Position numbers and translations under genes: made by a program
In this document: positions 50,132 through 62,145 of the stretch, in pieces
Position numbering within the stretch: the stretch's first letter is position 1
How the letters are laid out: every line of letters begins with the position of its first letter
The notes under the pieces: model-generated
The model's database searches: none
What the model was told of the DNA's origin: nothing
The model's input: the letters and a program-made list of their open reading frames with translations, nothing else
DNA from: a virus
Lineage: Duplodnaviria > Caudoviricetes
Direction: 5' to 3' (one strand)
DNA length: 64,000 nucleotides
Virus record (IMG/VR): IMGVR_UViG_3300028886_000036
Span: 32,001 to 96,000 of that record

Positions 50132-50925
50132 TGTTTAATAAATTACAGCAATGGTTATTGAAATTAATAGGTAGTAGATTTTCATCAGTATCTATTATAA
50201 TGGTCCTTGGGTTCTTATGTTACTATTTTAATATTTCTGCAGCTACCTTGTTTGAATGGTATCATGGGGATATTAGTAAACTTACTGTTGCACTTAGCGT
50301 TGGAGCTTTAGTTTCATTATATATTTCTGCGGATCTCATTATGAGTAGATTAAAACATATAGGTGATAAAGTAGATCGTCATGATGTGGTATTTAATTCA
50401 GCCGCATCTATTAATGAAGATAATAAAAAGAATTTAAAAGTGGTCCTTAAAAAGATTGACAGTATAATACAAGAACTTGGCAATAGTTCCAATGTAGTTA
50501 TTATACTGATACAGCAAAGCATCTATTTAGTTAGACCATCAATAGATATAGTTGCTAGCCAATATTTAGGTTTATCTGGAACTTTGAATGATCTTCAAAA
50601 ACAAGCCTTAAGAAAGCATATTGATAATGAGAAGATTAAATTTATTAGAAATATGTCTTACTTTGTTACTAGATTCTTTGATCCAGATTTAAGAACTACT
50701 ATGTTCAATCAAATGATTAAAACTAGTATTGACAAGGCCTTTGAAAGATGCTATGATGGTTTAGTAGAAATTTTAGATAATGGGGATACTGATTATGCTT
50801 CCAAATTATCTAAAGTTAGAGTAGTTGAAGATCAAATTGTACAAGACTTATTAAAAGGCGTTCTAAATATCGATTATGATATGATAGATCCTAAATTTAA
50901 AAGTAGGATGCCTGTTGACTTATAA
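50131..50925 (+). CDS. Membrane protein (2 N-terminal TM helices)
   Basis: TAATG coupling; hydrophobic N-terminus. Confidence 0.6.
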   Translation: MFNKLQQWLLKLIGSRFSSVSIIMVLGFLCYYFNISAATLFEWYHGDISKLTVALSVGALVSLYISADLIMSRLKHIGDKVDRHDVVFNSAASINEDNKKNLKVVLKKIDSIIQELGNSSNVVIILIQQSIYLVRPSIDIVASQYLGLSGTLNDLQKQALRKHIDNEKIKFIRNMSYFVTRFFDPDLRTTMFNQMIKTSIDKAFERCYDGLVEILDNGDTDYASKLSKVRVVEDQIVQDLLKGVLNIDYDMIDPKFKSRMPVDL

Positions 50926-50943
50926 GAAAGACGGTGATATAAT

Positions 50944-51234
50944 ATGCCAGGAGCTGCAAGATTAGGTGATAGTTGCACTGGTCATGGTTGATTTCCCAGT
51001 AGAGTTAACGTAGAAGGAAGTCACGATGTATATATAAATGGTATTCCAGCACATCGACAAGGAGATGGTTGGGCAGTCCATTGTTGTGGAAAATCCTGAC
51101 ACGGTAGCTCATTAGCTGCAGGTGCAGCTAGGGTATATGTTAATGGTAAACAATTGGGTTATATTGGTGCTCCAGTAGCCTGTGGGAGTTCAGTTTCTTC
51201 GGGTTCAAGCGATGTAATAGTTAATCCAGCTTAA
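50944..51234 (+). CDS. PAAR/gp5.4-like spike-tip protein, 96 aa, with two in-frame TGA codons (candidate selenoprotein)
   Basis: MPGAARLGDSCTGHG*FPSR...HRQGDGWAVHCCGKS*HG...VYVNGKQLGYIGAPVACGSSV; GGTGA RBS; TGA at 50989 and 51097. Confidence 0.88.
51097..51142 (+). promoter_or_regulatory. Candidate bacterial SECIS element
   Basis: UGACACGG...UAGCUGC-AGGU-GCAGCUA hairpin starting 14 nt after UGA; resembles fdhF UGACACGG...UGC-AGGU. Confidence 0.7.
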
Positions 51235-51249
51235 GAAAGGAAGATTTAT

Positions 51250-51954
51250 ATGAGTTTTGTATTGCATGAGATATCAAACAATCTATTATTGAATGAAGAG
51301 GATATTCGTAATCTATTGCACAATCAAGTAATTGAAGATGCTAATAGAAATTTAGGTCTTAAAAAGTATAATGTTAATGCTACTGATATATGTGGATGTA
51401 TAAAGGCTCTATATTTTAAATTTAAGAATATAGAGCCATCTAATCCTCCATCCTATCCTTATTCTCCAATAGTACTTAATGTTGGTTCTGTTATACATAC
51501 TATAGTAGAAATGCTTTTAAAGCCAGAAGAAAAAGAAGTTTCTATTAGGTGTAGTCTACATGGTTTTAATTTGAATATGAGAGCAGATGCTATATATCAT
51601 AATAAGGTACTTCATGAATACAAAACTATTGATAATATAGATGAGAAAACTACTTGTAAAGAAGATCATTTAAAGCAAGCAGTAATTTATACGTATCTAT
51701 TAAATACCTATTGTAATAGATCTATTGAATGGATACAAATTATCTATATTGCTAGAGGTAAAGTTAATGTCAAGGTGTTTAACATACAAGTAACACCAGA
51801 ATTGATGTCTAAAGTAAAAGATAGATTAGACAGACAATTAAGTTATTTAAGAACTTGTTTAGATAGTAATACTGTACCTTCATTTGAAAATGAATTTTGT
51901 AAATGCAGTAAATTCTGTGAGTATTATGAGTTCTGTAAATCATTATCATCATAA
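51250..51954 (+). CDS. Cas4-like PD-(D/E)XK exonuclease
   Basis: N-terminal C, G..IH, RADA...EYKT, Q...Y, C-terminal C..C...C Fe-S-type cluster. Confidence 0.8.
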   Translation: MSFVLHEISNNLLLNEEDIRNLLHNQVIEDANRNLGLKKYNVNATDICGCIKALYFKFKNIEPSNPPSYPYSPIVLNVGSVIHTIVEMLLKPEEKEVSIRCSLHGFNLNMRADAIYHNKVLHEYKTIDNIDEKTTCKEDHLKQAVIYTYLLNTYCNRSIEWIQIIYIARGKVNVKVFNIQVTPELMSKVKDRLDRQLSYLRTCLDSNTVPSFENEFCKCSKFCEYYEFCKSLSS

Positions 51955-59838: not shown

Positions 59839-59862
59839 TTCATTATAAAGGGTGTGATTACA

Positions 59863-62145
59863 ATACCTGCAAATAATATATTTCCTGGAGTTTATGTAAG
59901 TATTCAGGATAACTCAAACTATGTCGAAGCTATTCCAGGAGCCATAGGATTTATGTGCTTGCTCTCTGAAAAGGGCCCAGATAATAAACCAGTGATGGTT
60001 ACTAGTGTTTCTGACTTAATTTCTAAGTATGGTGAGCCATTAATTCGCCGTTATGGTCAGGGTTGGTATGTTGCTAAAGAGTATTTAGATACTTTAGGTA
60101 ATCTTTGGGTTATGAGAGTTCTTCCAAAGAATGCTACTTATGCTACATTAGCTCTTAAGCTTACACAGAATCCTGATGTAATTACCACATATAAGAGAAC
60201 CATTAAAAAAGATGAGAAGGATAATGATGTTGAAGTTCTTACTATGATTTCAAGAAAAACTACTGATGATGTAGTTCTTACTGTTGAAGATCTTAACAAG
60301 AAGCCTTTAACCGATCTTTTAGCCAAGGTTCCAACTGGTAAAAATGTTATTTTCCCAGCATCTGAAATTAATAGACCTGCCGAATATGAAAATGATATTA
60401 CTCTTATGGGTGCTGAAGCCGGTAACGCTGCTGGTGAAGATGAAAGAGACGGTGGAGAAACTGTTTTCAATTCACCTATACTTGGAAGTACTACACTTAG
60501 ACTTGATGGTCTTACATTAAGTCAGTATGCTTTCTCTGCAGATTATTCCGGGGTTTCTGATATTGAAATTAGAAATTGTAGAATACTTGGGCTTTCTGGT
60601 GCTACAGTTGAAGTTCCTGAAGAATTTTCTACTCAAGAAGCTCCTGTTGAGGAAGTAGAAGATCTTCCATTTGACACCAAGACTTTAACTGAAAGAAGTT
60701 TCTCATTTGTTAATGTTGAACTTGAAGATATTCATACAGTTCCTTCAATGGATTCTCTTCTTAATGGTGAGAATAATGCTGCTGATATTATCTTCTATCC
60801 ATATGGTAGAGGCGAGTATTATAATAGACTTGGCCTTAAGCTCACTAAGGCTAGAAAGTCTTACGATAATGCATTTATTTTAGATATCTACGAGCTTGGA
60901 GATGACTCCGCTTACGCTAATTTAGTTGAGTCTTTCACTGTTTCATTTGATATTGACGCAAAGGATATTTCTGGTTCGTCCTTATTTATTAAGGATGTTC
61001 TTGATATGTACTCAGATTATATCAAGTGCGAAGTTAGTGAAAATAGTGAGTACTTCGGTCATTATGAAGAAAATTCTGAAGAGGTTATTGCTCGTACTCC
61101 TGGGGATAGTTCTACAAAGTACGACTATGAGACTTTAGAAGTTAATTATGATGATTTAGCTATGGCCGAGATTGAATATCTCTCTGGTGGTAAAGATGGC
61201 ACTATGTATGACAAGAACGGTAATCTTGATTGGAATGCTGAAGTTGACGTTGACGACACTGGTAAGAAGAAAGAAAATATGGTTATGGCTTTATCAAATG
61301 CTTACTGTGGATTAAATGTCAATCCCGAGACTGGCGAGTATAACGATGAGATTACTGATACTGAAAATATGGACTTCACAGTTGTCTTTGATGCCGGTTG
61401 GCCTACTCCAGTTAAGGATGCTATAGTCGATCTTTGCGATTCAAGACAAAGCTGCTTTGGTTTCTTAGATAACGGTGTTGCTGCTGAAAATGGTAATAGA
61501 TCAGCAAAACACGCTATTGATAAGAGACTTACAGATCATAATTATAATGATTATAGAGTTGCGTTATATGAGCCATATACAAAGTTATATGATTCATTTA
61601 CCGGTACTTATTTCTGGGCTACTCCTATGATCCATGTTGCGTCATGCTTTACTAGAACTGCTAGAGATAAGAATATCTGGTGGGCTGCTGCAGGCCTTAC
61701 TAGAGGAGCATGTGCCGGTATTAAGGACTATAGATACAAGCTTGCTGGTGGTTATAAGGATATGTTCAAGGAAGATGAGCTTAATCCTATTATGAGATTT
61801 AACCAGGGCGGAGATTGTATCTGGGGCAATTGGACTACTCAGCAAACCCCATCTGCTCTTAAGAATATCCACGTTGTTCTTTGCTTACAGTATATTCATA
61901 GAGTTCTTGAAAGAAATCTTAAGCAGTATGTGTACGAGTTTAATGATGAATATACTTATGCTAAGATTAAAGACACTGTTAATGCTTTCTTATCTGATCT
62001 TGCTTCAGAAAGAGCATTAGAGAGCTTTAGTGTTAACGTTGGCGCTACAGAGTATCAGAAGAGAAATAATCAATGCAAGGTTGATATTGATCTTAAGATT
62101 ACTGGCGTTATTGAAATTATCAACGTTTCACTTAATGTTAACTAA
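59863..62145 (+). CDS. Contractile tail sheath protein (probable ATA start)
   Basis: FPGVYVSIQD, KGPDN, WAAAGLTRG, LNPI, WGNWT, YEFND. Confidence 0.92.
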   Translation: MPANNIFPGVYVSIQDNSNYVEAIPGAIGFMCLLSEKGPDNKPVMVTSVSDLISKYGEPLIRRYGQGWYVAKEYLDTLGNLWVMRVLPKNATYATLALKLTQNPDVITTYKRTIKKDEKDNDVEVLTMISRKTTDDVVLTVEDLNKKPLTDLLAKVPTGKNVIFPASEINRPAEYENDITLMGAEAGNAAGEDERDGGETVFNSPILGSTTLRLDGLTLSQYAFSADYSGVSDIEIRNCRILGLSGATVEVPEEFSTQEAPVEEVEDLPFDTKTLTERSFSFVNVELEDIHTVPSMDSLLNGENNAADIIFYPYGRGEYYNRLGLKLTKARKSYDNAFILDIYELGDDSAYANLVESFTVSFDIDAKDISGSSLFIKDVLDMYSDYIKCEVSENSEYFGHYEENSEEVIARTPGDSSTKYDYETLEVNYDDLAMAEIEYLSGGKDGTMYDKNGNLDWNAEVDVDDTGKKKENMVMALSNAYCGLNVNPETGEYNDEITDTENMDFTVVFDAGWPTPVKDAIVDLCDSRQSCFGFLDNGVAAENGNRSAKHAIDKRLTDHNYNDYRVALYEPYTKLYDSFTGTYFWATPMIHVASCFTRTARDKNIWWAAAGLTRGACAGIKDYRYKLAGGYKDMFKEDELNPIMRFNQGGDCIWGNWTTQQTPSALKNIHVVLCLQYIHRVLERNLKQYVYEFNDEYTYAKIKDTVNAFLSDLASERALESFSVNVGATEYQKRNNQCKVDIDLKITGVIEIINVSLNVN

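Follow-up and report, generated by a model that had tools for sequence, protein, structure and literature searches.

The locus discussed here raises the question of whether an RNA hairpin that directly follows an in-frame UGA codon in a phage tail gene is a bacterial-type selenocysteine insertion sequence (SECIS), or whether its fold and its position have some other origin. The stretch of DNA analysed (the window, 64,000 nucleotides) comprises bases 32001-96000 of a virus record of 275,466 bp, with 32% G+C and complete by CheckV. It belongs to a contractile-tailed jumbo phage (a giant rumen phage), whose tail sheath gene at 59854-62145 encodes a protein 27-30% identical to the sheaths of phiR1-37, PBS1 and AR9. 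In the tail module, genes for proteins of 264 and 234 aa flank a stretch of 325 nt that holds no open reading frame under translation table 11. When TGA is read as a residue, this gap becomes a 96-codon gene for a PAAR spike-tip protein on the plus strand (50944-51234), running from an ATG at 50944 to a TAA at 51232-51234 and preceded by a Shine-Dalgarno-like GGTGA 6 nt 5′ of the ATG (50933-50937, by direct reading of the sequence); homologous TGA-bearing PAAR genes likewise possess a Shine-Dalgarno sequence and an ATG or GTG start. The two in-frame TGAs are codon 16 (50989-50991, context GHG-U-FP) and codon 52 (51097-51099, context GKS-U-HG).

Such genes are a pitfall for annotation, as a TGA-containing gene is left as a gap by most callers, for which the PAAR locus is 325-350 nt of ‘empty’ sequence. 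In the public gene calls of two contigs (L252:1276-1566 and L253:1781-2071), the full 96-aa product is given despite two TGAs, presumably because a TGA-sense model was chosen for these two short contigs; all other assemblies (e.g. L248, L249, L250 and L251) have the uncalled gap of 325-350 nt in place of the gene. In more distant contigs (L258-L265, where the downstream-neighbour protein is 50-52% identical), the flanking tail genes abut with no PAAR gene between them, and the spike-tip gene of those phages is therefore elsewhere or absent.

Membership of the product in the PAAR family is clear from its match to Pfam PF05488 (PAAR_motif; E 1e-13, 51.8 bits against a gathering score of 27) and from its relatives in the PDB, namely 9VYI (UpfC; 4.6e-14), 4JIV and 4KU0. 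Residues H14, H46, H53 and C80 align with the metal-ligand positions of 4JIV and 9VYI, and we take them, after Shneider et al. 2013, to be the three-His-plus-one-Cys set of metal ligands. Positions 16, 47, 48 and 52 lie right beside the metal-binding histidines, which would place any selenocysteine (Sec) residues at these sites in the apex of the spike tip.

Comparison with close relatives shows that both UGAs are translated through and that the frame is under purifying selection. The relatives were retrieved from an index of 5.8 billion proteins, combined with contig look-ups, by way of their upstream-neighbour proteins, which are 70-98% identical and come from bovine and rumen assemblies. 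The window sequence (WIN) and seven further PAAR sequences (L248-L253 and L255 among their labels) make up a rumen clade of eight. A search of IMG/VR with the two neighbouring proteins returned no relatives; when the coding pattern of GAARVYVNG was scanned for, metagenomes yielded one further member of the clade and IMG/VR none. Over the codons 3′ of UGA16, dN is 0.19-0.39 and dS 1.1-2.0 between WIN and six relatives, and the same picture holds after UGA52; no frameshifts occur in these comparisons, every family-invariant residue is retained, and the contigs of all relatives show either the same uncalled gap or a TGA-containing PAAR gene. The failure of most gene callers at this locus would suit a pseudogene or a sequencing error, with the TGAs as inactivating mutations or assembly artefacts. 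Against this, assemblies made independently in separate rumen studies (L253, L252 and L254) contain the same TGAs, UGAs are kept at Cys sites across the relatives, and selection downstream of the TGAs is strongly purifying. A pseudogene is excluded by dN being far below dS through both UGAs, and the reading as a whole, error included, is extremely improbable.

Nor does the phage use TGA differently in general. TGA terminates 47 of its 317 ORFs of at least 100 aa and is thus an ordinary stop; no convincing in-frame TGA was found in any phage gene besides PAAR, and none of the phage's 8 tRNAs has a UCA anticodon. An alternative genetic code (of type 4, 15 or 25) or a phage suppressor tRNA was rejected on these grounds, and the PAAR gene is almost certainly recoded at UGA. 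The phage genome holds no SelB domain and no tRNA-Sec of its own, its single RF01852 match being a tRNA-Leu(UAA) that was rejected as a tRNA-Sec. Outside the window, a tRNA-shaped gene (G000:C1:242743-242809) with a 6-nt anticodon loop, CAUUAG, is reported by ARAGORN at the relaxed threshold only; it has no UCA anticodon and was rejected both as a UGA suppressor and as a tRNA-Sec.

The identity of the inserted residue can be approached through the rest of the PAAR family. The 115 distinct homologues have either Cys (101) or UGA (14) at site 16, and Cys without exception at site 48. Sites 47 and 52 covary: both are Cys or Sec in 55 homologues, so that UGA52 of the window gene aligns with Cys there and covaries with Cys47, neither is in 59, and only one homologue is discordant. 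In the rumen clade, WIN, L253 and L252 carry UGA at codons 16 and 52, L249, L251 and L255 at codon 16 only, and L248 and L250 combine Cys16 with a UGA at codon 48. UGA thus occurs in the clade only at codons 16, 48 or 52, each of which is a Cys position of the family, and this confinement argues for a Cys-like residue rather than generic read-through. Across all UGA-bearing genes, UGA is never found on both members of the pair 16-48 or of the pair 47-52. The two genes with UGA48 (L248:2149-2463 and L250:2849-3151) have it at the family-invariant Cys48 (H-T-U) and share a longer loop between positions 48 and 53; L248 also has an insertion of 8 residues after codon 25.

The same alternation is found outside the rumen clade. 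Site 16 is UGA in about nine distinct, otherwise intact PAAR genes of phages (by a DNA-pattern scan) and in MAGs of Bacillota, Opitutia and Porticoccaceae (by a genome scan), which also revealed UGA52 twice in one Synergistaceae MAG (L200 and L210). UGA at site 52 is present in L252, L253, L200, L210 and L240, the last of which, a gene of the L210 type, was all that pattern scans for further site-52 genes returned. Another low-G+C lineage with the UGA16 form is represented by L099:4281-4571, on a contig of 29% G+C, with an unusual, Cys-rich 47-52 segment (H-G-C-C-C-C-P-P-H) and the hairpin CUUCC-AGUUCA-GGAAG.

Of the UGA16 genes of other phages that encode a P-S-x-E/G-G peptide, 13 of 13 have a 5-bp hairpin whose G-containing loop is at nt 21-24, and the count for Cys homologues, genes encoding this peptide included, is 2 of 104; UGA plus hairpin is therefore the rule in the PAAR family. 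The other site-52 genes, L200 and L210, have weak hairpins only, in different registers. Among four host MAGs of UGA-PAAR prophages (hosts of other phages, not of the phage studied here), three have selB above threshold (422, 243 and 317-347 bits) and two have tRNA-Sec above threshold, which in one of them adjoins selB; no selB was seen in a sister Synergistaceae MAG with a Cys-form PAAR. Taken together, Cys/UGA alternation, hairpins after UGA16 and selB in prophage hosts are the usual signature of selenocysteine.

The window gene itself does not follow the pattern of one UGA with one adjacent SECIS, since UGA16 has no hairpin comparable to that after UGA52. No SECIS-like hairpin follows UGA16 in the window gene (local fold z = -0.4; best value in a bSECIS-style scan +1.9 kcal/mol), and a local hairpin at this codon is equally missing from L253, L252, L249 and L255, with L251 as the exception. 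The reason is that the ancestral P-S-x-E-G stem decayed to V/P-N-V/I-E-G in the clade (RVNVEG/RPNVEG). Canonical SelB recoding therefore cannot yet explain the whole gene.

The situation at UGA52 is different. The initial annotation had described an fdhF-like SECIS hairpin directly after this codon, and the RNA that it quoted, UGA included, is found exactly at 51097-51142, with the TGA being codon 52 of the frame. The candidate SECIS, UAGCUGC-AGGU-GCAGCUA (51113-51130, plus strand), does have the perfect 7-bp upper stem ascribed to it, with arms at 51113-51119 and 51124-51130, all pairs Watson-Crick and four of them G-C; a U.G pair (51112/51131) can lengthen the stem to 8 bp, and the hairpin alone folds at -10.4 kcal/mol. 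The AGGU loop, given earlier as about 21-24 nt after UGA, is located at 51120-51123, which is nt 24-27 when the U of UGA is counted as 1. UGA52 is separated from the stem by 13 nt and from the loop by 20 nt, and the second loop position is G, followed by GU. The minimum free energy of the 54 nt from 51097 to 51150 is -16.6 kcal/mol (z = -1.95 against dinucleotide shuffles). The lower pairings that had been thought possible (GCUC/GGGU and UGACA/UGUUA) do form in this minimum-energy structure but are not conserved, with 73% of cells paired across the relatives, and are dropped by RNAalifold. In a bSECIS-style scan, which had been proposed as a check, the UGA52 hairpin fits, and no other hairpin that follows a UGA or a Cys codon in the clade does so. 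Over 50900-51300, the Rfam SECIS families (RF01988-RF01991 etc.) were without a match, both at gathering score and with E allowed up to 10. The bulged U found in the upper stem of the E. coli fdhF/fdnG type is absent, the stem being perfect; this bulge is a feature of E. coli-type SECIS elements and is not universal.

How much of this structure could arise by accident can be considered at two levels. In the 275-kb genome, there are only 52 perfect Watson-Crick hairpins of at least 7 bp with at least four G-C pairs. Stems of at least 6 bp with a 4-nt loop containing GGU number four on both strands together, and the only G+C-rich one is the UGA52 hairpin. Given this rarity in an A+T-rich genome, the chance of such a hairpin being placed in the 25-nt zone after one of two UGAs is about 4e-4 to 1e-2. 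At the level of the peptide, L-A-A-G-A-A-R in favoured GCU/GCA codons may simply fold, as a by-product with no function in the RNA: with the codon usage of the phage, 12.5% of the synonymous codings of LAAGAAR reproduce the perfect stem, and the fold is equally stable in 13-20%. Taken by itself, the window sequence therefore owes its hairpin mostly to the peptide. Indeed, the synonymous-recoding test on the window alone is not significant for UGA52 and null for UGA16; the window sequence by itself does not prove selection on the RNA, as codon choice is not significant there. It also suits a by-product that all eight clade sequences retain the GAARVYVNG peptide, L251 with its lost hairpin included. 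The peptide is nonetheless unusual. As the initial annotation had remarked, it departs from the PAAR norm, positions 60-61 being G-S in 110 of the 115 homologues outside the clade and G-A here, and the replacement of Ser61 by Ala is precisely the change that forms the 3′ arm of the hairpin, which stands against a by-product.

The comparison across the clade goes further. The hairpin is perfect in five of the seven relatives (L253, L252, L249, L250 and L248), which with the window sequence make five lineages (WIN/L253, L252, L249, L250 and L248). The remaining two, L255 and L251, carry UGA16 only; the former has a weakened hairpin and the latter has lost it. The upper helix is 91.8% paired across the clade alignment, and all breaks are in L251. 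Covariation among UGA-bearing relatives, another check proposed at the outset, was indeed found, through one compensatory swap in which a stem pair is U-A in three sequences and A-U in three more, so the structural support amounts to about five independent lineages and a single covarying pair. The AGGU loop is invariant in six clade sequences, even though its GCA and GGU codons could vary. At saturated synonymous divergence, four of four structure-relevant synonymous third positions are invariant, compared with 9 of 42 codons for conserved residues elsewhere. Stem plus loop would be expected from the peptide alone with a frequency of 0.016 per lineage, yet five lineages at dS of about 0.7-2 keep both. 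Changes in the stem are only compensatory and the loop codons GCA and GGU are fixed, against 33 of 42 other conserved-residue codons that vary, all of which makes the by-product reading very improbable. A perfect hairpin in five diverged lineages, the swap and the invariant loop together indicate that 51113-51130 is a selected RNA element inside the phage PAAR gene.

L251 (3341-3637) stands apart in the clade. Its peptide is LDSGAAR, and it is the sole member without the Ala-Ala-Gly-Ala-Ala hairpin. Nucleotides 21-31 after its UGA16 form a small hairpin instead, UACC-GGU-GGUA (4 bp, -0.9 kcal/mol). The distal and the UGA16-local hairpins thus have complementary distributions in the clade. RNAalifold also proposes a long-range helix in which codons 3-6 (GGAGCUGC) pair with codons 84-86 (GGUGCUCC), which corresponds to columns 13-22 and 251-260 of alignment A2 (in the window, about 50950-50959 and 51191-51200) and encloses both UGAs and the hairpin. 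Two of its pairs change on both sides and several cells are broken; it may merely stem from the complementarity of Gly and Ala codons.

A selected RNA element is not necessarily a SECIS for the UGA next to it. Under the refuting test that the initial annotation had itself named, sequences without UGA52 ought to lack the hairpin, and the outcome is divided: the hairpin is indeed missing from about 115 Cys-form homologues outside the clade, but it is perfect in three clade members without UGA52. Specifically, L249 has Ser52 and its only UGA at codon 16, about 124 nt upstream, and L248 and L250 have Thr or Ser at 52 with UGA48 at 41 nt from the loop. A UGA-free member does not exist among the eight clade sequences; as every member carries a UGA, the clade offers no clean negative control.

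These observations invite the reading that the SECIS is shared and acts at a distance, with one SelB site licensing any UGA upstream (codon 52 at 13 nt, codon 48 at about 34 nt and codon 16 at about 124 nt), by tethering of SelB or through intervening folds. Every hairpin-bearing clade member has at least one upstream UGA, and L249 keeps a perfect hairpin without UGA52 despite substantial synonymous divergence. UGA16 is without a local hairpin in WIN, L253, L252, L249 and L255, and the hairpin-less L251 is the one that has a local hairpin. In L248 and L250, the RNA between UGA48 and the conserved hairpin has an additional helix, not the same one in the two, that could shorten the effective distance. 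On the other hand, L255 combines UGA16 with a weakened hairpin, the sample is of eight sequences, and the local hairpin of L251 is just 4 bp. We know of no precedent for a bacterial SECIS acting over more than 100 nt. In one published account, which cites Heider 1992, the bacterial SECIS lies immediately adjacent to the UGA and the UGA-SECIS spacing is critical in E. coli (PMC2933860). A shared element is thus a tentative proposal that we regard as unlikely. The fuller version, in which the single AGGU hairpin would be the only SelB site of the PAAR mRNA in the clade, Sec would be inserted at UGAs 13, about 34 and about 124 nt upstream, and the virion tip would carry two Sec-Cys pairs next to its metal site, appears rather unlikely; if it were true, a bacterial SECIS could act at a distance and serve several UGAs.

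The persistence of the hairpin where UGA52 is absent, as well as the lack of a match to the Rfam SECIS families, would also suit a conserved role that does not involve SelB, such as a pause site, an element for mRNA stability or regulation, or a stimulator of UGA read-through by a near-cognate tRNA (for Trp or Cys). Such a role does not sit well with UGA being found only at the Cys positions 16, 48 and 52 and nowhere else in the phage, with a loop GGU and a distance that match the rules for SECIS elements, or with selB in the hosts of other UGA-PAAR prophages, and it is judged distinctly improbable. Both a role without SelB and a by-product of the peptide are less likely than an adjacent or a shared SECIS.

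The reading that we favour, with slightly better than even confidence, is that the hairpin is a bacterial-type selenocysteine insertion sequence for UGA52, 13 nt upstream, and hence a candidate SECIS to which SelB is predicted to bind. It draws on the position of the UGA at a Cys/Sec site, on translation through it, on the bacterial-SECIS geometry and on conservation with a compensatory swap; what weighs against the earlier SECIS claim is that the hairpin is not coupled to UGA52 and that UGA16 has none. Under this adjacent-SECIS reading, host SelB carrying Sec-tRNA(Sec) would bind the AGGU-loop hairpin while UGA52 is in the ribosomal A site, and Sec would be inserted where translation would otherwise end. 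The resulting virion protein would carry Sec at 16 and 52, beside the metal-binding H14 and H53 at the apex of the PAAR cone. The Sec/Cys partners would be 16 with 48 and 52 with 47, possibly as selenylsulfides or as metal ligands; as each covarying Cys pair has at most one Sec, the chemistry may be that of a selenylsulfide, or of a metal ligand provided by Sec, able to withstand a strongly reducing habitat.

No phage selenoprotein and no PAAR selenoprotein was found in the searchable literature, where viral selenoproteins are poxvirus enzymes only. Beyond the UGA16-type PAAR genes, what is new at this locus is a gene with two UGAs, a predicted Sec position at 52 (48 in relatives) and a conserved hairpin that is uncoupled from the adjacent UGA, the other UGA having none. 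If recoding by SelB is true, the clade amounts to a natural experiment on the latitude that bacteria allow in UGA-to-SECIS spacing, and insight into spacing would be of practical interest for engineering Sec into proteins. Recoding would further imply that phages of anaerobes spend selenium on the virion tip, the part that pierces the membrane.

Among known systems, the closest parallel is the SECIS of E. coli fdhF, which is an in-ORF hairpin right after a Cys-equivalent UGA. The likeness proposed by the initial annotation holds when checked on E. coli K-12 from codon 140 onward: the first 8 nt, UGACACGG, which encode Sec-His-Gly in both, and the motif UGCAGGU are common to the two, and GGU is exposed in a 4-nt apical loop in each. 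The differences are in spacing and detail. UGCAGGU occupies nt 18-24 in fdhF and nt 21-27 in the PAAR hairpin, whose loop is thus 3 nt (one codon) further from the UGA; the PAAR stem pairs perfectly over 7-8 bp and lacks the bulged U, its lower stem is not conserved, and SelB binding of the PAAR element is predicted. Unlike the fdhF element, it is also kept in relatives without an adjacent UGA.

In the consensus model for bacterial SECIS elements used by bSECISearch, the distance from UGA to apical loop is 16-37 nt. The UGA52 hairpin agrees with this model in its distance, its small loop with G in the first two positions and its stability, whereas UGA16 has no fitting element and UGA48 of the relatives, at 41 nt, is outside the range. 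A published discussion of the model notes that it also misses about 13% of known bacterial selenoprotein genes (PMC12013277).

Within the PAAR family, the UGA16-type genes of other phages and prophages (L051-L139, L147, L165 and L171) likewise have UGA in place of a conserved Cys and a downstream hairpin with G in its loop. They possess one UGA and a hairpin formed by Pro-Ser-x-Glu/Gly-Gly codons, whereas the window gene has a second UGA at 52 (48 in relatives) and a hairpin formed by Ala-Ala-Gly-Ala-Ala codons. The solved tips, VCA0105 of V. cholerae (4JIV), gp5.4 of T4 (4KU0) and UpfC of P1 (9VYI), belong by sequence to the same fold family but lack the extra cysteines, with Gly at 16, Asp/Thr at 47, Lys/Asp at 48 and Ser/Thr at 52, and none is a selenoprotein. 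Among viruses, the glutathione-peroxidase selenoproteins of poxviruses (fowlpox and molluscum contagiosum) use the host machinery, and the fowlpox SECIS lies inside the coding region (PMC8310308, PMC1802603). The poxvirus proteins, however, are enzymes and rely on a eukaryotic SECIS and SBP2, whereas the PAAR protein is a structural component of the virion for which a bacterial, SelB-type system is predicted.
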